From the NCBI GenBank assembly GCA_019894975.1, contig JAGXNO010000006.1, forward strand, positions 1-64,000: 64,000 nt of DNA, in the 5' to 3' direction. This document shows positions 13,383-56,819 of the stretch, piece by piece; positions within the stretch are counted from its first letter, which is position 1, and each line of letters starts with the position of its first letter. The notes under the pieces are model-generated. The model made no database searches. It saw only the letters and a program-made list of their open reading frames with translations, and was not told the origin of the DNA. The DNA comes from Promethearchaeota archaeon (GTDB lineage Archaea > Asgardarchaeota > Lokiarchaeia > Sigyniarchaeales > SOKP01). The position numbers were made by a program, and so were the translations under genes.

Positions 13383-13387
13383 GGTGA
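13383..13387 (+). promoter_or_regulatory. Shine-Dalgarno-like GGTGA overlapping the called GTG start of the E2 gene
   Basis: TAGGTGATTATCATTAGA; the same TAGGTGA precedes the ferredoxin ATG at 7869. Confidence 0.45.
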
Positions 13388-13902
13388 TTATCATTAGAGA
13401 AGAAACAGATTATACTGAAGCTATCGAATCATATAAAAACGAACCGTCGGTTATTTTAGAACCATGGGGTCGAAGTATTGATCACTTACGCTTAACCATC
13501 ATAGGTAAAAAAGGAACTCCTTATGCAGATGGCAAATTCATTTTTGAAATAAAATTTCCAGACAATTATCCATTCGCTCCCCCATATGCTTATGCTGTTA
13601 CCTTAATGTGGCATCCTAATATTGACAGTTCCATTCCACCTGGTAAGCTTAACATTTGTTTAGATTTAATTAATCCTGACCTGGTGGGTAAAGTTGATGC
13701 TAGCACCGGCGCATCTGGGTGGACTCCAAGTAAAACCTTAACTAATATAATCGAAGCTCTTAAGGGCATGATGTTTTACGAAGCTCCGTTTTTTAATCCA
13801 GGAGACCCCTTAAACCATGAGGCAGGAGAGCAGTATTTTCGAGCCTTGAAGAAGTTCGAAAGTAAAGCATCTGATTGGACTAAGAAGTATGCGATGGATT
13901 AG
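13384..13902 (+). CDS. Ubiquitin-conjugating enzyme E2 (catalytic Cys present)
   Basis: GTPYADGKFIFEIKFPDNYPFAPP, WHPNI, NICLDLI (Cys92), WTPS.TL, DPLNHEA. Confidence 0.93.
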   Translation: MIIIREETDYTEAIESYKNEPSVILEPWGRSIDHLRLTIIGKKGTPYADGKFIFEIKFPDNYPFAPPYAYAVTLMWHPNIDSSIPPGKLNICLDLINPDLVGKVDASTGASGWTPSKTLTNIIEALKGMMFYEAPFFNPGDPLNHEAGEQYFRALKKFESKASDWTKKYAMD

Positions 13903-15628: not shown

Positions 15629-17227
15629 CTACATAAACGCGATAACCACGTTATACTTTTTTATTTCTGATTCTGCTAATGCTGTTCCTAATGGGCTCAA
15701 AGTAATAACATCATTACTTTTTATTTTTAGAGCAGTCAGTTTTATATCTGGGTCTTTCAATGATGGCATATATGGATTCCAATAGATTTCCTTAGTCATT
15801 GGGTTTGTGATCATCCACAGTTCTGAATCTAGCTTATGTCCTGATATCTCCATTGCCTGAAATATGTAAGCTACATTTGCATCAAAAGGAACTACAATTT
15901 GAACATTTTCTTCTCCCTCTATTTTCCCACAAGCAAGGCAATCCTCTCTTTTTAGAATATTTAAGTGATCAAATTGACCATAAATACCATTATAATTGAC
16001 GTATGAAGGATCCATCGGAGCACCTATATTTCTTCCATTAACTCTAAATAGAAGTTTTAAGGCTTCCTGAGATTCAATGCTAGAGATAACAGAACTAACT
16101 GTTTGTATAGCTGCAATTTTATTCCCTAAAATATTTTCCATTTCCTCAAATTTATAATCTGGACCGAATGTTTCTCTTATGTTTTTCTTCCAATCTTCAA
16201 TTTGGTCATCAGTTAAAGTTTCTCGTTCTTCAATAGGAATGTTTTCATCAAATACTCTTTCTCTTAATTTTTCTAATTCAATTTGGGCTATTCCTTTTAA
16301 CTTAAGTACTTCATCATTTAAATTAAGATCCGGTTTATGTCCATATTTTTTTTCAAATTCCACTTCAGCCTTAATAACGCAATGATTTCTGTTGCGAGGT
16401 AGTCCTTTTAAAGTGCATGCAGCGACTAATTTATCATCAGCAGGAGGAATTGGAACCAAACACCTGTAGCAAGGCGTTTGATCTAAAATTTCAGGTGCAA
16501 ATTTCCAATCAAATACCATTTCAATTTCCTTTCTAATTTTGTTTACTATTGGATCCATTCTTGCACTCTTAATTCGATCAATTTCTTCTTCTAATAACTC
16601 AATTTCTCTTTGAGCTCTAAAATAATCAGGATATTCATTGTCTGATAACTCCCATAATCTTGCTTCTACTAAATTTTCGATTTCAATATCTTTTTTTTTA
16701 TATCTTAAGCCTGCACCTTCAGGAATTACGACTTGTACATGCCCTTCAAAACCAAGTGTTCCACCCTCAACCATGGGTTTTTTCATTCTAAGGCAAATTT
16801 TATTCAAATCTAATCTGGCGTTAAAATTGTCTAAAGCCGCGACAACTACATCTGATTCTTCATATACCGACATAGGTAACTTTTGGAGCTTTTCAAAGTA
16901 AAAATCGATATTTAAATAGGGATTCATTTCTTTTAATCGTTCTGCTGCAACTTCTGCTTTTGGACGTCCCTCATCTCCCGGGCGAAATAACATTTGGCGA
17001 GATAAATTAGAAGTTTCAATGGTATCAAGATCCACTAATATTAATTTGCCTATACCCATGAGAGCGAAATCTTTTGCAATCTCGCAACCTAATGCACCAA
17101 CACCAATAATCAATATACACCCTTTATCAACAACTTCCTGATCCCATCCATCAATCAGCTGTTGTCGAGCATACATACGTGCTTTAACAATATCTTCAAT
17201 CTTTTCGGTCATACTAAAAATCCTCAT
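15629..17227 (-). CDS. Ubiquitin-like activating enzyme E1 (ThiF fold, catalytic-Cys domain, C-terminal ubiquitin-fold domain)
   Basis: YARQ, GVGALGCE, DLDTIETSNLSRQMLF, LDN..AR, CYRC, ACTLKGLPRNRNHC, GNKIAAIQT, CLAC. Probable start ATG at 17212. Confidence 0.92.
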   Translation of the reverse strand: MRIFSMTEKIEDIVKARMYARQQLIDGWDQEVVDKGCILIIGVGALGCEIAKDFALMGIGKLILVDLDTIETSNLSRQMLFRPGDEGRPKAEVAAERLKEMNPYLNIDFYFEKLQKLPMSVYEESDVVVAALDNFNARLDLNKICLRMKKPMVEGGTLGFEGHVQVVIPEGAGLRYKKKDIEIENLVEARLWELSDNEYPDYFRAQREIELLEEEIDRIKSARMDPIVNKIRKEIEMVFDWKFAPEILDQTPCYRCLVPIPPADDKLVAACTLKGLPRNRNHCVIKAEVEFEKKYGHKPDLNLNDEVLKLKGIAQIELEKLRERVFDENIPIEERETLTDDQIEDWKKNIRETFGPDYKFEEMENILGNKIAAIQTVSSVISSIESQEALKLLFRVNGRNIGAPMDPSYVNYNGIYGQFDHLNILKREDCLACGKIEGEENVQIVVPFDANVAYIFQAMEISGHKLDSELWMITNPMTKEIYWNPYMPSLKDPDIKLTALKIKSNDVITLSPLGTALAESEIKKYNVVIAFM

Positions 17228-17349: not shown

Positions 17350-20300
17350 TTATTTCTTCTTTTTTTTCTCAGCTTCTTTAATCATTCGTTTTAAGTTATC
17401 CACTTCTTCTCTTTCTTTAGCTTGTTGTAATTTTTCTTGAAAATCTTGTTTTTCTGATTCTTTTGAGCTTAATTCTTTAATAAGCTCTTCTTTTATTTCT
17501 ATCATGCCCCCCATTATTCGTCTAAATTCCTTTGCTTCATGTTTAATCTCATCCTTTTTTTGGAGTTCAGATACCTCTTGTTCTTTTCTTCTTTGTTCAA
17601 TTAAAATAATTACCTCATCGGCTAATCCACTCACTTCTCCAATTGTACCCTTTAATTGTTCATCCTCCTTTTCTCTACGATGCTTTTCTAATTCTCTTTG
17701 GTTATCGAGTTGTTCTTGAATAGTGTTAATTCTTGATTCCTCATTTTCAACCTTCTCTTCGAGGTTCTTAGTATTTTTTATTTCGGTCTCAATATATTTT
17801 ATTTCCTCCAGCCAACCAATTTCCTTAAAATTACTTATAGCTTTTTCAAAACTTTGAAAAGCCTTTTTAAAGTCATGATATGCAGCCCATTTTTTACCTT
17901 CATCGATTAATTTTAACCCTTCATCCTTAATTTCATCCATTCGTTGCCTGTTAATAACTAGCTCCCTATATTGTCTTTCTTGTTCTCTCCTTAGCTTTTC
18001 TTGCTCAAATCTTCTTGCTTTAACATCATCTTGGAAAATCTCATATTCCCTTTGTCTCTGAATTAATGCTTGTTCTTCTAACCGCTTCTTTTCTTGAAAA
18101 TTAATTTGTTCTTGCTGTAAATCTTTGATTAATGCGTTTAGATTATTTATTTCGGGCTCCCATCCAATATTTACGGCTAAAAGATTCCTGGCTTGATTAT
18201 ATAACGAAATAGCTTTATTATAGTCGGGATTTAATTGTTTCAAATATCTTCCTGCTTCTTCTAACATCGAATAAGCGGATTCTCGTATACTTGTTTGTTC
18301 TTGAATGGCTTTTTCTCTTTCTTGAAGGGCTAGTTGTTGGGCTTTTTTCTTTTCCCTCTCTTGTCTTTGTCTTTCTTCAATTAACAATTGTAAATCTTTT
18401 TCTTCTTGGATTTTTTCTAGCTCCCTTTGAAAATGCAATTCATGCATTTCTTCCTTTTGTTTCATTAAATGAGTTACTTTTGTTTTCATACTTCTTATTG
18501 AATCTGTTGGAAAATGCAATTCATTTAAAATTAATTCTGCTTTTCTATAATTTTCTATAGCCTTGGCATATTCAAGATTTTTTAAAAATTCCTCCGCTTT
18601 ATCTAATATCTTGAATGCATCTCGTTTCCTTATTTCAAGATTAGCTTTTAATTTTTCTATTTCTTCAAGCTGAACTTCCTTTGTTTGTAAACTTTCTGTT
18701 TCTCTTCTTAATTCTTCTGCAATGTTTTGTTGGAATTTCCATTCTTCCCTCTCTTTTTGTACTTTATTTTCTAACTCTTTCTGCATTTTTAATTCATGCT
18801 GTCTTTTCCTTTCTTGAACATTTTGAATCATCTCTCGAAGACTTTCAGTTGGAAAAGCTATTTCATTTAAAATAATTTCAGCAGAGCGATAACTTTCAAG
18901 TGATTTATCATATTGAGCTTGATTCATATATAACCCAGCCTTTTCAAGAAGGTCAAAAGCTTCATCTTTTCTTCTCTCCATGTATTCATAATACTTTCTT
19001 CGGTTTTCGAATTCTTTCTGTTTAGTTTTGGTCTTCAACTCATCTATTTGTATGCTCTCAACAATTTTTCTTTGGAACTGTAGTTCTCCCCGTTCATTCT
19101 GTAATTTATTCTCTAACTCTTTCTGTTGTGCTATAATTTCTTCTTTTCGTTTTTCTTGTATTTTACCTATCATTTCTTTAACTGCTCCTGTTGGAAATCC
19201 GATTTCATATAAAATTAGCTCTGCTTGACGATAGGTCTCGATTGCTTGCTCATATTCCCCCTTATTCAATACTATTTCAGCATTTTCCATTAATTTAAAC
19301 GCATCTGTCTTTTTAGTACCAAATAATTTTATTAAATCCTCACGCTTGTGAATTCGGATGTCTTTCTCTGTTAATCTCTTCTTTTCAGTTTGTAGTGATT
19401 CAAAAACTTTCTTCTGAAATCTTTCCTCTTCTTCCTTTTGCTTAAGCATTAATTGCTGTTTCAAATTCTCATTTTCTTCTAATTTCTTCTTCCTCTCTTG
19501 GATCGTTCTAATTGTTTCATTCACTAAATTTAAATAAGGACCAGTCCACCCAATTTCGGTTAAAATTTTAGTAGCTTCATTATATTTACTTAGAGCATTC
19601 TCAAAATTATTTTGTTTAAGTAAGATTTCTCCATCCTCCATAAATTTAAATGCTTCTTGCTGTTTTTTTGAAATTTGGGATGTTATTTCTTTTTGTTTTT
19701 CTACTGATTGAAATTCTTTCACAGCCATTGATTTTTCTTTTTCTTTCTGAAGGTTTATTTGCTCTATAAAAGCGTAATTAGCTTTTTCTTCTTCTATTGC
19801 TTTTTCTAACTCTTTTTGTTGAATAATTACTTTTTCTCTTTTTCTTCTCAAGATATCATTTATAGCTTCTTGAATTATCGGGATCTCATCAATCCATTGT
19901 ATTTGAGCAAAAATATTAGCAATATCGTTATACAACTTGAGTGCGTCATCATATTTTCCTTGCGATAGGAGATCTTGAGCTTGGTCTAATATATTAAAAG
20001 CAAATTCCTTTCTTTCTTCACGGAATGCAATTTCTTCTTCCTTTTTTCTAAGTGTAATTTGTCTTTGCTTGAATTGCTCCCGTTGATTAGAAGTTTCAAT
20101 TGCAATCTGAGTTTGAAAAACTTTTTCGAGTTTTTCTTGTTTTAAAATCTCCTCCACTTCTCTTTGTTTATTTAATTCAGCTTCACGTTTTTTATCTTGA
20201 ACAATCCTGATTGAATTTTGAATTAATTTTATCTCATCATCCCAATGAATTTCTGTAAAAATACTTGATGCCTTCTGATACAATTCAATTGCTTTATCAA

Positions 20301-23300
20301 AATCATTTCTAGAGATACTTCTTTGTGCTTCTTCCAATAAATTAAATGCTTTCTTTTCTTTTTCTTCGAGGATTATCCTAATATCTTCCTGTTTTCTTAG
20401 CTTTGCTTGTTTTTCTCTCATTTTTTCTTGTTCATATTTTACTTTTTCAGAAATCAGTTGCTGAAACCTTAAATCCTCCTGTTCTTTTCTAAATCCTAAT
20501 TCCAATTCTTTTGATCTATTTATTTCTCTTTCTCTTCTTTTTTCTTGGATTTTTTGAATCATTTCTTTAATTAAATCAGTTGGATAGCCAATTTCATTTA
20601 AAATTAATTCTGCTTGTCTATAATTTTCTATTGATTTGTCGTAAAGCCCATGATTTAGTGAATTTTCTGCATTATCCATTATTTTAAAAGCCTCAGATTT
20701 ACGCGTTTCAGCAAAATTTATCATTTCTTCACGTTTTAGAATTTGTATTTGCTTTTCTTTAATCCTATTTTGTTCTGTTTTTAGATAATGCGAAATTTTA
20801 TTCTGAAATTGCTCTTCTTCTTTTTGAAGGGTTAGTTTTGATTCAAATTCAACTTGCTTTACCTTTTCCTCTTCTATCATTTTGTTTTGTATTGTAGAAA
20901 GTGTTTCACTCAGCAATTTTAAATAACCTGATCCCCAACCAATCTCTTTTAGAACATCTATTGCTTTTTGGTAATTTTTTATAGCTTCTTCATATCTATA
21001 GACTTGAACTAAGTTTTCTCCCCCCTCCATTAATTTAAAAGCTTCTTCTTGTTTAGCCAAATTCTGAGTCGATAATAATTTTTGCTCTTCTATCATTTCT
21101 ACATCTCTTAAAACCTCTTGTTTTTCTCTTTCTCTCTGATGCTTTATTTTTTCAATAAAAGTCTTATCATCAACTTCTTTTTTAATTGCTTTTTGTAATT
21201 GTTTTTGTTTAAGAATTAACTCATTCCTCCTCTTTTCCTCAATATCTTGGATTGCTCCTTTCAATAAGAGAATCTCATCCTTCCATTGAATTTGGGCAAA
21301 AATATTTAAAACTTCATAATATATCTCAAGTACGGAGTCGTAATCATTAAGAACTACTAATTTTTGTGCCTCCTCTAGCAACTCAAATGCCTCTTCCTTT
21401 TTCTTTTCTCGGTATGCGATTTCTTTTTCTTTTTCTCTAATTATTAACTCTTTTTTCTTTAGCTTCTCCTGGCGGGTCTTAATTTCAGAAGCTACTAGAT
21501 CTTGAAATCGTTTTTCTTGCTTCTCTCTTTCAAACACTGATTGTATTCTGATTTGTTCCTGTAGAGCAGCTTCTCTTTTTTTATTTTCGATTTCTATTAT
21601 AGAGCTCTGAATCAAATTAATTTCATTTTGCCATTGAGCCTCCGCAAAGAAATTTGTAGCATAATGAAGAATTTCAATAGCTTCATCAAAGTTTCCATTG
21701 TACATTTCACTTTGAGCTTCTTCAAGCAATTTAAATCCTGCTTCTCTTCTTTCTTCACGATATTTTAATTCTTCCTCACGGTCTTTTAAGGCAATATTCC
21801 GGGTTTTAATTTTCTCACGTTCTTGTTTTAAATAATGACTTATCTGTTTCTGGAATGTTTCTTCTTCTTTTTCTTTAGTTATCATTTCCTGCATTCTTTT
21901 TTGTTTCAGAAGATTCTGACTTCTTTGTAGCTCTTCAACTTTTAATACAGCATTTTCAATTAAAGGTATTTCGTCCTTCCATTGAATTTCTGCAAATAAA
22001 TTTGCAGTAGTTTGATAAGCCTGTAAAGCATTATTATAATCTCCTTGATTAATATATTTAATTGCAGAATCTAATGATTCAAAAGCCTCATTCTTTCGTT
22101 GTTCCAAATAAAAAATTTCTTTCTCTTTATCTTTTAAAACAATTTCTTTTTGCTTTAATTGTTTACGTTGCTTATCTAATTGAGTTGCTATTTGTTTTTG
22201 GAATTCGAGTTCTTCTTTTTCTCTATTTTCTAGTTTCTGTTGAATATCGTATGTTTTCTTAAGTTGGGAATTTTTAATTTTTTGTACATTTGAAATAGTA
22301 TTATTAATGTTAGAAGCATAGATTTCCCAACCAGACCCCAATTCCTTTATATAATTTAGAGCTTTTTCATATTCATTGATTGCTTCTTCGAATTTTCTTG
22401 ATTGTAAATTATTATCAGCTTGACTTAGTATCATAAAAAATTCTTTTTCCTTTTTAACCTTACTTTCTCTCTCTTCTTCAAACTGTCGTTTCCGAGTTTC
22501 TAACTCTAAATTTGTGTACTGAATTTCTTCTTTTTGCTTCTTATATATTGAATTTTGTAGAATAGTAAGATCTTTCTCCCTCTTTACTTTCAATTTTTCT
22601 GATTTTTCCTCTTCTTTGAGTTTTGTGTTTACATCTTCTATTAAATTTATAACCGGGCGAATATAAGAGTCCCATTCAATTGATTTAAATAATTCAACTG
22701 CAAGTTCAAAATGTTGTATTGCTTGATTATAATTTTTGTCTCTTTCAGATTTCTTTCCTAGATCTATTAATCTGAAAGCCCTTGCTTGAATTTCTTCTTC
22801 TCTTTTCTTCTTCTCTTCAAATTCAATTAATCTTTCTTTTTGCACTTCTGATTTATCTAGTACGGAATCTCTCTCAGTTCTGCTTAAAACATCCACACTA
22901 GCTTGTTTTTGTTGTAGTTGGAACTTTTCAAATTGATCCTTATCTCTCCTAAGCTTTTCAATGATGATTTTAATGTTTTGGGTTTGGTCATCCCAGCCTA
23001 TTGAATTTAATAACTCTATGGCCCTTTCATAATTCAATATTGCTTTATCAAATTTCCTTTCATTTTCAAATACTTTTGCTTTGTCGATATGAGAAAATGC
23101 GTGATTTTGAGTTTCTTCTTCCTGATTTTTCCTAGAACGATATCGAGCAATCGATTCAGCTTTTTCTTTAGTTGCAATTTCACCAAACATCCCAACAACT
23201 CCAGGTTTTTTATCATCCATTTTTTGAAGAAATTCTTCAGGAGGAGTTAATTCTTGTTGTTGTCGTTGAGAAATTGCTTGTTCTTTCTTTAAGGTATTAG

Positions 23301-23712
23301 AAAGATCTTTAATTTTTAATTTTAAGTTTTCTAACTGAGTTTCAGACCAGCCAGATTGATTTAATAAACTAATAGCAGACAAATATTGTTGAACAGCATC
23401 TTCAAAAAACCCATCAGACTCCAATTTTTTTGCTCCTTCTAATAGAGCAAATGCTTGCTCTTGAAGTTGCACAGATTGAGTCTTCATTTGAGTTTGTTCA
23501 TATAATTTCTCCTGTTTCAAGAAACCCTTTAATTCTTCTACTCTTTCATAAATCTCATCAATTCTATGCATCAAATATCCGCTTTGTTTGAGATATTCTG
23601 CAGCGATCTGGTAATTCGAAATTGCTTCTTCAGCATTTTTTTCTGCTTCAAACTTTTGTGCATTTTCTAAATATTTTAAAGCTTCTTGAGCTAAATCTTC
23701 TGGATTTTCCAT
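17350..23712 (-). CDS. Giant 2120-aa protein of 18 MIT/TPR-like helical repeats joined by E/K/Q/R-rich helices
   Basis: AFxLLExA..x(Y/F)DxAIExYxxAxxI(F/L)xEIxW recurs about every 115-120 aa. Confidence 0.85.
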   Translation of the reverse strand: MENPEDLAQEALKYLENAQKFEAEKNAEEAISNYQIAAEYLKQSGYLMHRIDEIYERVEELKGFLKQEKLYEQTQMKTQSVQLQEQAFALLEGAKKLESDGFFEDAVQQYLSAISLLNQSGWSETQLENLKLKIKDLSNTLKKEQAISQRQQQELTPPEEFLQKMDDKKPGVVGMFGEIATKEKAESIARYRSRKNQEEETQNHAFSHIDKAKVFENERKFDKAILNYERAIELLNSIGWDDQTQNIKIIIEKLRRDKDQFEKFQLQQKQASVDVLSRTERDSVLDKSEVQKERLIEFEEKKKREEEIQARAFRLIDLGKKSERDKNYNQAIQHFELAVELFKSIEWDSYIRPVINLIEDVNTKLKEEEKSEKLKVKREKDLTILQNSIYKKQKEEIQYTNLELETRKRQFEEERESKVKKEKEFFMILSQADNNLQSRKFEEAINEYEKALNYIKELGSGWEIYASNINNTISNVQKIKNSQLKKTYDIQQKLENREKEELEFQKQIATQLDKQRKQLKQKEIVLKDKEKEIFYLEQRKNEAFESLDSAIKYINQGDYNNALQAYQTTANLFAEIQWKDEIPLIENAVLKVEELQRSQNLLKQKRMQEMITKEKEEETFQKQISHYLKQEREKIKTRNIALKDREEELKYREERREAGFKLLEEAQSEMYNGNFDEAIEILHYATNFFAEAQWQNEINLIQSSIIEIENKKREAALQEQIRIQSVFEREKQEKRFQDLVASEIKTRQEKLKKKELIIREKEKEIAYREKKKEEAFELLEEAQKLVVLNDYDSVLEIYYEVLNIFAQIQWKDEILLLKGAIQDIEEKRRNELILKQKQLQKAIKKEVDDKTFIEKIKHQREREKQEVLRDVEMIEEQKLLSTQNLAKQEEAFKLMEGGENLVQVYRYEEAIKNYQKAIDVLKEIGWGSGYLKLLSETLSTIQNKMIEEEKVKQVEFESKLTLQKEEEQFQNKISHYLKTEQNRIKEKQIQILKREEMINFAETRKSEAFKIMDNAENSLNHGLYDKSIENYRQAELILNEIGYPTDLIKEMIQKIQEKRREREINRSKELELGFRKEQEDLRFQQLISEKVKYEQEKMREKQAKLRKQEDIRIILEEKEKKAFNLLEEAQRSISRNDFDKAIELYQKASSIFTEIHWDDEIKLIQNSIRIVQDKKREAELNKQREVEEILKQEKLEKVFQTQIAIETSNQREQFKQRQITLRKKEEEIAFREERKEFAFNILDQAQDLLSQGKYDDALKLYNDIANIFAQIQWIDEIPIIQEAINDILRRKREKVIIQQKELEKAIEEEKANYAFIEQINLQKEKEKSMAVKEFQSVEKQKEITSQISKKQQEAFKFMEDGEILLKQNNFENALSKYNEATKILTEIGWTGPYLNLVNETIRTIQERKKKLEENENLKQQLMLKQKEEEERFQKKVFESLQTEKKRLTEKDIRIHKREDLIKLFGTKKTDAFKLMENAEIVLNKGEYEQAIETYRQAELILYEIGFPTGAVKEMIGKIQEKRKEEIIAQQKELENKLQNERGELQFQRKIVESIQIDELKTKTKQKEFENRRKYYEYMERRKDEAFDLLEKAGLYMNQAQYDKSLESYRSAEIILNEIAFPTESLREMIQNVQERKRQHELKMQKELENKVQKEREEWKFQQNIAEELRRETESLQTKEVQLEEIEKLKANLEIRKRDAFKILDKAEEFLKNLEYAKAIENYRKAELILNELHFPTDSIRSMKTKVTHLMKQKEEMHELHFQRELEKIQEEKDLQLLIEERQRQEREKKKAQQLALQEREKAIQEQTSIRESAYSMLEEAGRYLKQLNPDYNKAISLYNQARNLLAVNIGWEPEINNLNALIKDLQQEQINFQEKKRLEEQALIQRQREYEIFQDDVKARRFEQEKLRREQERQYRELVINRQRMDEIKDEGLKLIDEGKKWAAYHDFKKAFQSFEKAISNFKEIGWLEEIKYIETEIKNTKNLEEKVENEESRINTIQEQLDNQRELEKHRREKEDEQLKGTIGEVSGLADEVIILIEQRRKEQEVSELQKKDEIKHEAKEFRRIMGGMIEIKEELIKELSSKESEKQDFQEKLQQAKEREEVDNLKRMIKEAEKKKKK

Positions 23713-51874: not shown

Positions 51875-53515
51875 TTGGATAAAGAAAGAATCCTAAAAGA
51901 AGCCCAAAGAATAGCAAAAGAATTCTCTTTTTGGATGGTTTCTGGTAATATCGCTCATTTATATGGTCATGTTTATGAGACTCCAGAAAAAAATTTTGAA
52001 TTAGAACTAAAATTTGATGAAACTTTTCCAAATAAACCTCCTCAATTGATCTTTCACAAGGAAATTAAAGAATTGCTAGGAGAGATTCATTTAGAGAAAT
52101 ATAATCAATGGAACCCAGAGTTCAAAGTAGTCGATATTATCAAGGAACTAAAATTAAAAATTCAGGAAGCAGCAAATCTTTCAAAGACAGAAATAAAAGA
52201 AGAATTAAGTCCATTAGAAACAGCTGAAGAAAACTATGATGCTTCAGATTCTGAGGAATTTCTTGCTCCTGATCTAAATGAATACCCGGAAGAATTCCAA
52301 CCAGAAGACTATATAACACCCTCAGATTTTAATAACGATTTAATTGATAGCGACCAAACATCGACAACTTTCTCAGAAGATAATAAGATCGAATCATATC
52401 AAGAACCAATTTTTGATGATACGGAACAACTAAGTTTAGAATTGACTACAGAATTAGGAATAATTCAACAAGAATATGCTTATGACCAAAAAGGGTCATC
52501 TGCTGCTGATATTAATGTTTATATTACAATTACGCTCTCAAAAACTTTTATTATCTCTTTAAATTTTACAAATTTTCCAGAAAAACCCTTAATATCCCTG
52601 CCAGACGAAGTTAAAAATATTTTGATAGATCCAGAAAAAACATTAGATACTTTGAAAAATTGGAATTCTAAAAATCCAGTACATATTATTGATATTATCC
52701 GTGAATTGGAAAGGAAGCTCTATTTTATCAAGGAAATAGAATCTCAATATAAACACATTTCTGGTGAATATCAGTGTGAAAAAATTCCCGATAGTTTAAC
52801 ATCTGTTAAGGTCCATTTACTCACTTACGGTTTCAAGGAATATCTGGTAGTATTAGATCTAGAGCCCTATCCCAAACCCCCTATTATTGAATTACCATCT
52901 GAACTCCAGCACATTATTAATGTTCCCATCTCTGAGCTAAAATCATTCCATAGCTGGATTGAAAACGAGACAGATGCAGTGGAAATTATTAGAGAGATCT
53001 CTTGGCTAGTAGATAAAAATTCTAGAATTAATTTTGAGATTGATTTATTGAAAGACCATTATAAAAACATTAAGTATGACCCCATTACCGCAATTCTTCT
53101 TGTTGAAATGAAGGGAAAAATGAAAACAGAAGATCTCACATTTGAATTTCAAATTAATTTACCTCCTGATTATCCTATGAAAGTACCTGATATAAAAGTG
53201 GTAAATGAATTTGAATTAGAAGCCCATGAGAAAATAAAAAATGATTTACATGCTTCTTTTGATGACTTCTTTAAGGAATGGACACCCTTTAGTTATCTTG
53301 TTGATTTATTTAATTTAGTTTCTAAGAAAATATTCGAAGTATCCGTAGTATCGTGTGTTATTTGCCACAAAATTGAATGTCCAAGTTGTACTAAAAAGAT
53401 AGCGGGAGATGATAGTTGCCATACAGAATGCCCACATTGTAATAGAGCATATCATCGCCACTGTTGGGAACAAACTATACAATCATTTGGCAAATGTGGT
53501 TTTTGTCTTAGATAA
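51875..53515 (+). CDS. Tandem UEV/RWD (inactive E2-fold) domains plus C-terminal C4HC3 RING-like finger; putative E3 ligase
   Basis: Four (F/Y)PxxP motifs (FPNKPP, FPEKP, YPKPP, YPMKVP), each followed by W..(V/L)..II.E helices; C-terminal CVIC, CPSC, CPHC, HRHC, CGFC. Confidence 0.75.
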   Translation: MDKERILKEAQRIAKEFSFWMVSGNIAHLYGHVYETPEKNFELELKFDETFPNKPPQLIFHKEIKELLGEIHLEKYNQWNPEFKVVDIIKELKLKIQEAANLSKTEIKEELSPLETAEENYDASDSEEFLAPDLNEYPEEFQPEDYITPSDFNNDLIDSDQTSTTFSEDNKIESYQEPIFDDTEQLSLELTTELGIIQQEYAYDQKGSSAADINVYITITLSKTFIISLNFTNFPEKPLISLPDEVKNILIDPEKTLDTLKNWNSKNPVHIIDIIRELERKLYFIKEIESQYKHISGEYQCEKIPDSLTSVKVHLLTYGFKEYLVVLDLEPYPKPPIIELPSELQHIINVPISELKSFHSWIENETDAVEIIREISWLVDKNSRINFEIDLLKDHYKNIKYDPITAILLVEMKGKMKTEDLTFEFQINLPPDYPMKVPDIKVVNEFELEAHEKIKNDLHASFDDFFKEWTPFSYLVDLFNLVSKKIFEVSVVSCVICHKIECPSCTKKIAGDDSCHTECPHCNRAYHRHCWEQTIQSFGKCGFCLR

Positions 53516-53672: not shown

Positions 53673-56600
53673 ATGATATACTTGGAATTATTAGAAAAAA
53701 AGCTAGATCTACTAAAATTAGAAGAAAAAATATTGAATTTTTGGAATGAAAAGGAGATCTATGCAAAAATTAGGGAAAACGAACAGGGAAAAGAAACTTG
53801 GAGATTTATAGATGGACCCCCATACACCACAGGATCTATTCATTTAGGAACAGCTTGGAACAAGATTCTCAAGGATTATCTTATAAAATATAAAAGAATG
53901 AGAGGGTATAAGGTTACAGATACTCCTGGTTATGATACTCATGGATTACCAATAGAAGTACAAATGGAAAAACAGTTGGGAATAGATAACAAACAGCAAA
54001 TTATTGAGTATGGTGTAGATAAATTCATTACGAATTGCAAAGAATATGCTCAGAAGAATTTAAAAATAATGAATGATCAATTCAAAAGGTTAGGATGTCT
54101 TTTCTGGGATTGGGAAAACCCCTATATCACCTTTAAGAATAGTTATATTGAAGGAATTTGGTGGACTTTGAAAAAAGCGTGGGAAAATAAATTGCTTATC
54201 CAATTTTATAAACCTCTGAATTGCTGCCCCCGATGTGCAACGGCTCTTGCCAAGCATGAACATGAATATAAAAATGTTATTGACACTAGTCTTTTCCTTA
54301 AAATTAAATCAACTGAAATGGACGATACTTATTTTATCATCTGGACAACAACTCCATGGACATTAGTCGCTAATGAGGCAATAATGGCAAATCCTATTGC
54401 TGAATATGCAAAAGTGAAAATTGAAGATTTAGATGAATATTGGATTTTATCTAAAGCATCATTAGTACATTTAATTTCAGGAGAATTGGGTTACAAATAC
54501 AAAATCGTAGAGAATTTTATTGGTGAAGATTTGGAAGGGATGAGGTATGTCCATCCTTTAATAGAAGAGGTCCCATTTCAGAAGGAATTAGAAAAACAGA
54601 GTGATAAAGTCCATACAATTATTTTATCTGAAGAGTATGTTTCAGCTTCTGAAGGTGTTGGATTAGTTCACTCAGCCCCAGGACATGGTCCCGAAGATTT
54701 TGAAGTAGGAGTAGCTAATAATATCCCGGTCTTCAATCCCGTAGATATAAGAGGTAGATATACAAAGGATGCCGGGATTTATGAGGGAAAATTTGTGTTT
54801 GATGCTAATGAAGAAATATTAGACTTATTGAAAAAAAAAGAGACTCTCATATTTACAAGTGAAATTGAACATGAGTATGCTCATTGTTGGAGATGTGATT
54901 CAAAATTAGTGTATAGAGCTACCAACCAATGGTTTTTTAAAACAGAAAGCATTGTATCAGATTTATTAGAAAAAAACAGTGAAATCTACTGGGTTCCAGA
55001 TTGGGCAGGAAATAGATGGTTTAAAAGTTGGTTAAGCAGTTTAAAGGATTGGTGTATCTCTAGACAGCGATTTTGGGGTGTACCTCTGAGTGTATGGATT
55101 TGTGATGATGAAAATTGCGGCGATATTACTGTAATTGGCTCCTCTAAAGAGTTAAAGGAATTATCTGGAGAGATTCCTGAAGATCTGCATCGACCTTGGA
55201 TTGATCAGGTCACTTGGAAATGTAAAAAGTGCGACAAGGGTACAAAAAGGAGGATTCCAGATATTCTAGATGTGTGGTTAGACTCTGGTTCTGTAATGTG
55301 GGCTGCCCAAGAAGTTTATGATGGAAAAAGTCATTATGATACGTGGATTCCTGCTGATTTCATCCTTGAGGGAAAAGATCAAATTAGAGGTTGGTTTAAC
55401 ACATTACTATGCAGTGCAATGGTATCATCTGGGCGTAAAAATTATAACGCGTGCTATATGCATGGATGGACGTTAAGAAACAAACAAAAAATGAGTAAAT
55501 CCAAAGGAACTCAGATCCTTCCTGAAAATCTAATTGATGGCTCATTAGAAGAGTTGGCAAAAAATAAGTCTTACTCTAAAATAAAGGGAATTGAGACCTT
55601 TCGTCTTTATTCTATAGGCGTAACCCAACCTGGTCGTGATTTTAACTTCAGTACAAAGGAATATGCTGATACATATAAGGTAATCAATACAATATGGAAT
55701 GTATTTGTATACGCAGGTGAAAAATTGAGTCTAGCAGAATATGATCGCTCTAAGAATAAGGTTGATGAGAATTCTCTGAATCTATTAGATAAATGGGTCA
55801 TTTCAAGGTTACATTCTACGATTAAAAGAGTCACTGAATTATCAGATGAGTATAAGCTCCCCTGGATCACAGGTGAACTAAGAGAATTCATTATTAACGA
55901 TATTAGTAGATGGTATATCATGCTAAATCGAGAAAAGTTAGATATTTATTCTGAGAGTCCCGATAAATTCATGGTTATGACTGTGTTATTTGACCTTTTA
56001 TTGAAAGTTATACTCCTTTTAGCTCCAATCAATCCAATGTTAACTGAGGAAATTTACCTTAAAATGTTCAAACCTTATATGACTTCAATTGGACTAAAGG
56101 AAACTGAGAGTATTCATTTACAGAATTGGCCCATTTTTCAAGAAGATAAGATTAATTTAGACTTAGAAGACCAAATGTTATTTACTAGAGATTTAATCGA
56201 ATTAATACGTGCTCTAAAAGAAGATAATAAAATCAGACTCAGGTGGCCGAATAAAAAGATAATAATCGAACCAAAAGAGGGGATGCCTGAATTAACTTTT
56301 CCTGAGATTATTAAACAAATTGGAAATGTGAAAGAATTAGAAATAAAGGATTCTGTAAAGAGTAATAAAAATCTTGTGCAAGCTGAATCAAAATATTGCA
56401 CTATATATTTGGACATTAGCCTCGATGAAACTCTTTTAGCTGAACGTGTAGTAAATGATTTGGTGAGAAACCTTCAATTCTCTCGTAAAAAGAACAATTT
56501 CAAAGTCGGAGAAAAGATTGAATTATCTATTGGTACAAATATAGAATATTTAAATGAATATATTAAGAAAAATAGAGATACTATTTCAGATAAAGTCACT

Positions 56601-56819
56601 GTTCAGAAACTTGATATTATTGAAGGAGAATTACCAAAAGATGAAAAAAAGGTTTTTGGGGAATTAAACTTATGCCCCAATAGTAATTGTTCTGCTTCAT
56701 TGAAAGAAAACATCATCACTAAACTCGAAAAAGATAATGATATTAATTGTCCCTATTGTGGTATGAAGTTAAAAATGGATAACATCAGACCAATAACCTT
56801 TAGTTTTCTCAAAGTATAG
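53673..56819 (+). CDS. ileS: Isoleucine--tRNA ligase (archaeal type)
   Basis: DGPPY, HLGTAWNK, GYDTHGLPIE, WTTTPWTL, DWCISRQRFWG, EGKDQIRGWF, KMSKS. Confidence 0.97.
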   Translation: MIYLELLEKKLDLLKLEEKILNFWNEKEIYAKIRENEQGKETWRFIDGPPYTTGSIHLGTAWNKILKDYLIKYKRMRGYKVTDTPGYDTHGLPIEVQMEKQLGIDNKQQIIEYGVDKFITNCKEYAQKNLKIMNDQFKRLGCLFWDWENPYITFKNSYIEGIWWTLKKAWENKLLIQFYKPLNCCPRCATALAKHEHEYKNVIDTSLFLKIKSTEMDDTYFIIWTTTPWTLVANEAIMANPIAEYAKVKIEDLDEYWILSKASLVHLISGELGYKYKIVENFIGEDLEGMRYVHPLIEEVPFQKELEKQSDKVHTIILSEEYVSASEGVGLVHSAPGHGPEDFEVGVANNIPVFNPVDIRGRYTKDAGIYEGKFVFDANEEILDLLKKKETLIFTSEIEHEYAHCWRCDSKLVYRATNQWFFKTESIVSDLLEKNSEIYWVPDWAGNRWFKSWLSSLKDWCISRQRFWGVPLSVWICDDENCGDITVIGSSKELKELSGEIPEDLHRPWIDQVTWKCKKCDKGTKRRIPDILDVWLDSGSVMWAAQEVYDGKSHYDTWIPADFILEGKDQIRGWFNTLLCSAMVSSGRKNYNACYMHGWTLRNKQKMSKSKGTQILPENLIDGSLEELAKNKSYSKIKGIETFRLYSIGVTQPGRDFNFSTKEYADTYKVINTIWNVFVYAGEKLSLAEYDRSKNKVDENSLNLLDKWVISRLHSTIKRVTELSDEYKLPWITGELREFIINDISRWYIMLNREKLDIYSESPDKFMVMTVLFDLLLKVILLLAPINPMLTEEIYLKMFKPYMTSIGLKETESIHLQNWPIFQEDKINLDLEDQMLFTRDLIELIRALKEDNKIRLRWPNKKIIIEPKEGMPELTFPEIIKQIGNVKELEIKDSVKSNKNLVQAESKYCTIYLDISLDETLLAERVVNDLVRNLQFSRKKNNFKVGEKIELSIGTNIEYLNEYIKKNRDTISDKVTVQKLDIIEGELPKDEKKVFGELNLCPNSNCSASLKENIITKLEKDNDINCPYCGMKLKMDNIRPITFSFLKV

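Follow-up and report, generated by a model that had tools for sequence, protein, structure and literature searches.

A probable ubiquitin ligase of Asgard archaea laid out like human FANCL

The window analysed here is a stretch of 64,000 nucleotides from a Promethearchaeota archaeon (contig JAGXNO010000006.1, positions 1 to 64,000). The gene at 51875..53515 probably encodes a ubiquitin ligase that has not been described before and whose layout resembles that of human FANCL, as judged from its sequence and predicted structure. Its 546-residue product consists of four folds of the ubiquitin-conjugating enzyme (UBC or E2) superfamily, the first of which is set apart by an acidic linker, and a C-terminal RING finger. 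On balance we favour the view that it acts as a RING-type ubiquitin ligase (E3), or as the E3 subunit of a complex, in the Asgard ubiquitin-like conjugation system. A preliminary description of the gene had listed an E2 variant (UEV), an acidic linker, three more UBC/RWD units and a finger, and every observed detail in it was borne out by the open reading frame (ORF), Pfam matches, AlphaFold2 (AF2) models and residue conservation. The parts of the gene are as follows.

51875..53515, + strand: whole gene, one ORF of 546 residues plus stop, TTG start
51875..52192, + strand: module 1, pseudo-E2/UEV, residues 1-106 (Pfam UQ_con, Rad6 alignment, VIA structure search, column counts)
52193..52420, + strand: acidic disordered linker, residues 107-182 (low model confidence, composition, length varying among homologues)
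52256..52297, + strand: conserved linker motif EFLAPDLNEYPEEF, residues 128-141 (family consensus EY.TPDLNAYP)
52421..52723, + strand: module 2, Cys-less UBC/UEV-like fold, residues 183-283 (AF2, hhalign)
52724..53053, + strand: module 3, UBC/RWD-like fold, residues 284-393 (AF2, structure alignments of modules 3 and 4 together)
53054..53344, + strand: module 4, RWD domain, residues 394-490 (Pfam RWD, VIA)
53345..53512, + strand: C-terminal RING finger with 12 conserved ligands, residues 491-546 (conservation, covariation, profile matches)

Pseudo-E2 and RWD modules and their match to FANCL

The TTG start of the ORF is credible because homologues share the same N-terminal residues in the alignment, opening with M-D/E-K-E/Q-R-I-L as the 546-residue protein does. 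Module 1 resembles an E2 throughout. Pfam UQ_con matches residues 33-99 above its cut-off (E 1.1e-10), and the module aligns to Rad6/UBE2A chains in the PDB and reaches a Z score of 10.5 to UBE2A by VIA, a structure search independent of Foldseek. The position of the E2 catalytic cysteine is occupied by His72 (GEIHLEK versus GEICLD in the Rad6 alignment), and this column holds Gln, Asn or Ser in a set of 36 diverse homologues. Module 1 has no HPN motif. No cysteine is conserved anywhere in residues 1-490, where every column of the 36 homologues contains less than 40% Cys. The absence of both the catalytic cysteine and HPN rules out module 1 as an active E2, and the earlier assignment of an N-terminal UEV lacking the two stands.

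In the AF2 model, modules 2-4 are each built of a helix, a β-meander and a second helix. Long helices connect module 2 to module 3 and module 3 to module 4; the latter (residues 368-393) is highly conserved and carries the pattern REI.WLVDKNSRINFE. Module 4 is recognized by Pfam RWD (PF05773) over residues 363-482, scoring 34.7 bits where the cut-off is 22.8 (E 2.2e-8), and the same model finds 33 of the 36 homologues. The YPxxxP motif of RWD domains is conserved as Y433-P434...P438. The VIA Z scores of module 4 are 11.8 to RWDD1, 11.2 to GCN2 and 11.1 to the RWD domain of RNF25.

The modules are also related to one another. When slices of the family alignment were compared with hhalign, module 1 matched module 2 at E 1.3e-20, module 2 matched module 3 at E 2.7e-21 and module 1 matched module 3 at E 1.6e-16, while module 4 matched modules 1-3 at E 1e-7 to 7e-13. 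The four UBC-superfamily folds are thus internal duplicates, and the last is a bona fide RWD domain. The AF2 models, the Pfam match and this mutual similarity support UBC/RWD folds for the repeats. Modules 1-3 are each other's nearest relatives, as would fit a single UEV-like unit that multiplied within the archaeal lineage. Such an internal duplication argues against a one-to-one match with the ELF domain and the two RWD lobes of FANCL.

The linker between modules 1 and 2 consists of 33% Asp plus Glu and contains only 2 Lys plus Arg residues. It is predicted to be disordered, with a predicted local distance difference test score (pLDDT) below 50 in AF2, and its length is variable among homologues. 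At least 13 of 18 full-length homologues carry the motif EY.TPDLNAYP in a linker that is otherwise not conserved. The EFLAPDLNEYPEEF motif may serve as a peptide for docking or autoinhibition.

The full-length AF2 model, built from a 36-row alignment, has a pLDDT of 79.6. Residues 183-546 alone reach a pLDDT of 88.1 and a predicted template-modelling score (pTM) of 0.74. In a Foldseek search against the PDB, the top matches were to full-length FANCL over ~405 aligned columns (9a0j_L, E 1.9e-8; 7kzp_L, E 7e-7). BRE/BABAM2 came second (6gvw_C, E 1e-6 to 2.4e-6), followed by listerin (8aaf_e, E 3.6e-4) and Drosophila FANCL (3k1l, E 4.5e-4). Superposition of the whole chain on FANCL gave a template-modelling (TM) score of only 0.24-0.25 and a root-mean-square deviation (rmsd) of 15-17 Å. 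A FANCL-like overall packing is ruled out by this value; what matches is the domain order and the single and double domains.

The VIA searches gave a similar picture at the level of domains. Single modules reached Z scores of 10-12 to RWDD1, GCN2, RNF25, a SEA-complex chain and UBE2E1, and the best single-domain match in the search with residues 183-546 was to the SEA-complex chain (8adl_C, Z 11.4). Modules 3 and 4 together superimpose on the double RWD of FANCL (3zqs) with a TM score of 0.64 and an rmsd of 4.6 Å over 204 columns; by VIA the same pair gives Z 9.5 over 174 residues with an rmsd of 7.2. The double RWD of Knl1 scores as well or better (Z 10.4-10.8 over 173-177 residues), so the central double RWD is matched at the level of the fold and not in a FANCL-specific way. 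Over longer spans, VIA aligned BRE (6h3c_C) with Z 8.7 over 270 residues and FANCL with Z 8.1 over 258 residues.

The likeness to FANCL therefore lies in the layout: in both proteins, UBC-superfamily folds without a cysteine come first, in the same order, and a finger with a C4HC3 core closes the chain. Where FANCL has its ELF domain, the archaeal protein has a UBC fold that lacks Cys, although the Pfam model FANCL_d1 misses the protein and matches only 2 of its 36 relatives, weakly (2e-4). Unlike FANCL, which has three folds in ~375 residues, the protein has four folds and a 76-residue linker in 546 residues. Its domain orientations differ, as the whole-chain TM score indicates, and there is no Fanconi pathway context. 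The FANCL-type organization proposed in the preliminary description holds for the ranking of fold matches, with FANCL first and BRE next; it does not extend to the number of duplicated folds, four and not three, or to the Pfam models of FANCL, which miss the protein.

Descent could be read into this likeness: the gene would then be orthologous to eukaryotic FANCL, or its immediate forerunner, and its product would serve DNA repair as a monoubiquitin ligase. FANCL is the top Foldseek match over its whole length, an order of three UBC-like folds and a C-terminal C4HC3-core finger is common to both, and the short, three-fold relatives of the protein, with 370-440 residues, are about the size of FANCL. 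Weak matches to the FANCL models do occur, in relatives only: FANCL_d1 as above, and FANCL_C at 1.2e-3 in a relative from another Asgard class (genome G122). FANCL_C itself has no match to the gene at E <= 1 in a scan of the genome, nor to residues 480-546 at E <= 10. The sequence identity to FANCL is 12-14%, the VIA score of FANCL falls below those of generic RWD and E2 matches, and the RING of the archaeal protein has a third zinc site. The low whole-chain TM score, the lack of a DNA-repair context and the mutual closeness of modules 1-3, a sign that they duplicated within the archaeal lineage, also speak against descent. The Pfam model of FancD2 had no match in the genome, but its control was silent too, which makes this result uninformative. 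We regard this explanation as very unlikely, and orthology with FANCL is not supported.

The RING finger and its candidate E2

The finger at the C-terminus has the spacing C494-x2-C497, C502-P-S-C505, x13, C519-P-H-C522, x4, H527, x2, C530, x10, C541-G-F-C544. Seven of these ten ligands do not vary among the 36 diverse homologues, and the other three occur in 90% or more of them. With C515 and H529, the conserved ligands number 12 (C494, C497, C502, C505, C515, C519, C522, H527, H529, C530, C541 and C544). The full pattern is present in 157 of the 247 retrieved proteins, of which 153 have His at position 529, three have Cys and one has Ser; the few members without the extra Cys pair or C515 have Asn or Ala there. 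The extra His thus covaries with the extra Cys residues, which indicates a third zinc site and implies that the finger would bind three zincs. Of the two N-terminal Cys pairs, the spacing in minimal members favours C502/C505 as the likely canonical RING site. The ligand order and the Y-H-x-H-C motif presumably parallel the RING-H2 fingers of RBX1 and APC11, with an inserted third zinc site. The C4HC3 RING of the preliminary description is accordingly right in its core ligand order and too small in its ligand count, as four of the 12 ligands lie beyond a plain C4HC3 finger.

Pfam detects the finger poorly. Prok-RING_1 matches the 546-residue protein weakly at residues 499-534; in relatives zf-RING_2 reaches 9e-5 and Prok-RING_1 3.8e-6, both under the gathering scores. 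A profile of the RING alone, searched against PDB sequences, was more informative. Its best matches were Pirh2 (7e-6) and Arkadia (1e-5), then RNF165 and EL5, followed by RBX2 (5.4e-4), APC11 (1.1e-3), RBX1 (1.5e-3) and listerin (0.013); the best PHD finger (MLL3) and the best C1 domain (PKC-delta) both scored 6.6e-4. The alignments to plain RING-H2 fingers begin at profile position 15-16, at the second Cys pair. Those to the RBX proteins and APC11 begin at position 6-8, upstream of it. In sequence terms the finger is closest to active RING-H2 ligases, rather than to PHD fingers or the FANCL RING. The earlier call of a RING-like finger and not a PHD is thereby upheld, with Pirh2, Arkadia, RNF165, EL5 and RBX2 all preceding any PHD in the profile search and RBX1 level with the PHD fingers that come after the first.

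A treble-clef finger of the PHD, C1 or another type that reads a peptide, lipid or nucleic acid, with no role in conjugation, was weighed against the RING assignment. The C-x2-C-x4-H-x2-C spacing is PHD-like, the profile also gives weaker matches to the PHD fingers of MLL3 and DPF3 and to the C1 domain of PKC-delta (6.6e-4 to 1.7e-3), and Pfam C1_1, RH_dom and zf-HC5HC2H weakly match a few relatives. RING-H2 ligases, however, score ~100-fold better than PHD or C1 domains. AF2 predicts a helix between C530 and C541, where RING domains have one too, and in relatives the gene is linked to E1 and E2 genes. A reader of this kind is extremely unlikely.

Among RING fingers, those of RBX1, RBX2 and APC11 are like this one in the 12 ligands, the Y-H-x-H-C motif and the matches to the RING-only profile; in addition, Pfam zf-rbx1 matches three relatives. 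They differ in the spacing of ligands 3-4, which is C-x2-C-x4-H here and C-x-H-x2-H in the RBX type, and in being cullin-bound, whereas the finger here is fused to RWD folds. The E-values of these matches are modest.

The same finger, 50-60% identical, is found at the C-terminus of β-helix (NosD-like) proteins and leucine-rich repeat (LRR) proteins in other Asgard sequences (β-helix: P0179, P0182, P0184, P0186 and P0195; LRR: P0201). This suggests a modular family of putative Asgard RING ligases with differing recognition domains. A recognition domain followed by a C-terminal RING is the usual build of substrate-recognizing RING ligases. In four distant relatives (P0145, P0147, P0161 and P0164) a second, N-terminal RING-like finger is present (C-x2-C ... 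H-x-C ... C-x2-C), which gives them the layout RING, pseudo-E2 folds, RING (alignment columns 1-120 and 330-400).

The window contains a candidate partner for the finger, a canonical E2, as well as an E1 gene.

13384..13902, + strand: canonical E2 of 172 residues, HPN and catalytic Cys kept, candidate partner (UQ_con 2e-25)
15629..17227, - strand: E1-like activating enzyme of 532 residues (ThiF 4.5e-58)

Both had been identified as E2 and E1 in the preliminary description, and the Pfam matches agree. The predicted complex of the RING, with three zincs, and this E2 scored 0.44, versus 0.00 for the best of three controls, which the tool rates as weak support. The partner has a pLDDT of at least 86 and the runs agree in at least 82% of the contacts. 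Of 80 solved complexes, 58 reach the mark that this score passes, and so do 2 of 110 mismatched pairs. Scores of 0.60 or below were given by only 7 of the 80 solved complexes together with both passing mismatches; these calibration counts are only rough for the RING-E2 run, which used its own alignments and zinc. As RING-E2 is a textbook pairing, resemblance to solved RING-E2 pairs may account for the pass.

Distribution and gene neighbourhood

A word search retrieved 315 homologues, all from Asgard metagenome-assembled genomes, full length and 57-100% identical. They are labelled in databases as hypothetical, as 'E2 variant' or as 'ubiquitin-protein ligase'. An exhaustive HMMER search of 1.8 billion representatives added shorter forms of 350-460 residues without module 1. 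When 400 genomes of the phylum were scanned with a profile, full-length matches (E < 1e-80) were found solely in the class of the window, where they cover 126 of the 134 genomes of its own family and every one of the seven sampled families; outside the class there were single- or two-domain matches only. The family is thus conserved in one Asgard class, which the source labels of the homologues suggest to be Lokiarchaeia-type.

Gene order in relatives connects the family to conjugation enzymes. Three-fold relatives lie directly upstream of E1 in four genomes from two other families of the class (G126, G127, G128 and G129). The E1s that follow the relatives at four such loci (L040, L052, L053 and L054) have the window E1 (15629..17227) as their closest match. 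In G128 the order is three-fold relative, E1, E2 and a JAB gene with a coiled coil, and this E2 shares 63% identity with the window E2, versus 34% with the other E2 of that genome. In G122, the gene for a 293-residue UEV+RWD+RING protein stands tail-to-tail with that for an E1, on whose far side an E2 gene follows closely. No ubiquitin genes were found near the distant homologues P0124, P0126 and P0143. The proposed pairing with the E1 and E2 at 13-17 kb thus has a counterpart in the operon of relatives (L040), and it is not the layout of this genome.

Some further genes at these loci deserve mention. At L040:9359-16368 (G128:C6), the JAB/MPN gene with a long coiled-coil tail is followed by a 275-residue ThiF gene on the - strand and a vWA-RING protein. 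Tandem UEV, JAMM-coiled-coil and vWA proteins at one locus form the component set of BRISC/BRCA1-A (BRE, BRCC36/Abraxas and MERIT40). At L062:459-1181 on the - strand (G122:C157), the UEV+RWD+RING gene and E1/E2 have as a neighbour the gene for a 240-residue protein that combines an M48-like HExxH peptidase region with a RING at its C-terminus. In the window itself, the E1 gene is flanked by a gene (17350-23712, - strand) for a highly repetitive, Glu/Lys-rich protein of 2120 residues with TPR-like 'A..Y..A...F..I.W' units.

The immediate neighbours of the four-fold RING gene in the window are a GT2 glycosyltransferase gene and ileS.

53673..56819, + strand: isoleucyl-tRNA synthetase (ileS), conserved neighbour by Pfam, no functional part claimed

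ileS also adjoins the orthologues of three other loci, each from a different genus of this family (L044, L045 and L047). It is adjacent but divergent in another family (L038), and one gene away from a 40%-identical orthologue in L026. The adjacency may be retained synteny, and perhaps co-regulation. Directly upstream of the 40%-identical orthologue, an Arf/Rag/Roc-type small GTPase and an overlapping ORF of 100 residues are encoded (L026:6763-7943).

Ligase or scaffold, and what the family means

Several observations weigh against a role as a ligase, or against the cascade in which it would act. In the profile alignment, Leu takes the place of the Arg that Arkadia and RNF165 have right after the last Cys; this Arg is the usual 'linchpin' that activates E2~Ub. 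The last ligand pair is CGFC, not CPxC, and Trp531 directly follows C530, both of which we take to be atypical for RING-E2 contacts. From these residues, activation of the E2 may be weak or absent. The gene also stands outside any ubiquitin-system operon here, ~35 kb from the E1/E2 pair in the same window. The same genome has a second, compact operon for a ubiquitin-like protein (Ubl), E1, E2 and JAB on another contig (C84), a 102-residue RING-H2 protein on C77 (L037:2848-3156) and four E2-type genes in total. Moreover, the family is missing from five genomes, four of them single-contig, which indicates that the protein is dispensable. These five genomes keep the window-type E2 at 70-93% identity, which rules out a strict co-occurrence of the two and means that this E2 does not depend on the four-fold RING protein. 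For the distance, the second operon with the small RING-H2 protein and the E2 retained without the family, the earlier statement that the gene would complete a cascade with the E1 and E2 of the window went too far.

The second operon (L036:4065-10604, G000:C84) encodes a Ubl of 111 residues, an E1 of 411, an E2 of 175 and a JAB protein of 270. It adds a 390-residue protein without a Pfam match, and two more Ubl-domain genes lie upstream.

The altered residues of the RING would also suit a non-catalytic scaffold or ubiquitin-binding adaptor, in which tandem dead-E2 folds assemble a complex, in the manner of BRE/BABAM2, kinetochore RWD proteins or GATOR2, and the RING is structural or dimerizing. 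BRE, second in Foldseek and aligned over 270 residues by VIA, is matched by its Pfam model in 4 of the 36 relatives (6e-5), and the best single-domain match of residues 183-546 lies in a SEA-complex chain. In SEA/GATOR2 subunits, RWD domains occur with RINGs that serve mainly assembly. The relative at L040, beside a coiled-coil JAB and near a vWA-RING protein, recalls the set of BRCC36, BRE and MERIT40. Set against this, the finger has active ligases as its nearest sequence relatives and recurs in fusions with LRR and β-helix recognition domains, and relatives lie directly upstream of E1, with E2 next in one genome. BRE is like the protein in its tandem Cys-less UBC folds, but it has two of them and no RING, unlike the four folds, the conserved RING and the E1/E2 gene association in relatives seen here. 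We consider a purely scaffolding role unlikely.

As a RING-type E3, the protein could work as follows. The RING would recruit an E2~Ubl, most plausibly the E2 at 13384 once the E1 at 15629 has charged it. The three folds of residues 183-490 form a rigid block that, with its conserved inter-module and pre-RING helices, may dock and position a substrate or partner, as the double RWD of FANCL does for FANCD2-FANCI. FANCL itself works on FANCD2-FANCI together with UBE2T, in the Fanconi anaemia core complex. The N-terminal UEV, held on an acidic tether with the EY.TPDLNAYP motif, may bind ubiquitin or a partner non-covalently.

Other RWD-RING ligases show parts of this design. In listerin (Ltn1) and RNF25, as here, an RWD domain immediately precedes a C-terminal RING, and module 4 matches the RWD of Ltn1 with Z 7.9-8.5 and that of RNF25 with Z 9.4-11.1. 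The archaeal protein lacks a HEAT-repeat body and any evidence of ribosome binding, and it has extra pseudo-E2 folds.

Ubiquitin, E1, E2 and small RING proteins are known from Asgard archaea, while multi-domain E3 designs that confer eukaryotic specificity have been treated as eukaryotic inventions. Archaeal small RING E3s lie beside E1, E2 and JAB genes, and an E1/E2/RING cascade is active in vitro (Caldiarchaeum srfp; PMC5654768); an in vitro cascade of E1, E2 and RING has likewise been described for a Helarchaeial small RING E3 (bioRxiv 10.1101/2023.07.25.550441). In contrast to the present protein, these RINGs are small and single-domain, and tandem pseudo-E2/RWD folds have been described for none of them. 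One earlier paper mentions an 'RWD-like domain' of Asgard archaea in passing (PMC6601020). We found no description of a tandem pseudo-E2, RWD and RING protein in the Asgard literature, which is weak evidence of absence.

In this conserved archaeal family, dead E2/RWD folds and a RING are joined in one multi-domain protein, a build otherwise seen in FANCL, listerin and RNF25. The family is testable, as the operon context names cognate E1 and E2 candidates and all parts are small soluble proteins. Asgard archaea carry this family in two-, three- or four-fold forms, which stand beside E1/E2 genes in several classes, and it bears on the origin of RWD domains and of RWD-RING ligases. That eukaryotic RWD-RING proteins, ligases and scaffolds alike (FANCL, listerin, RNF25 and the RING subunits of GATOR2/SEA), descend from this archaeal stock is a rather improbable proposal. 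If it is true, the RWD-RING ligase design would predate eukaryotes and would not have been assembled independently.

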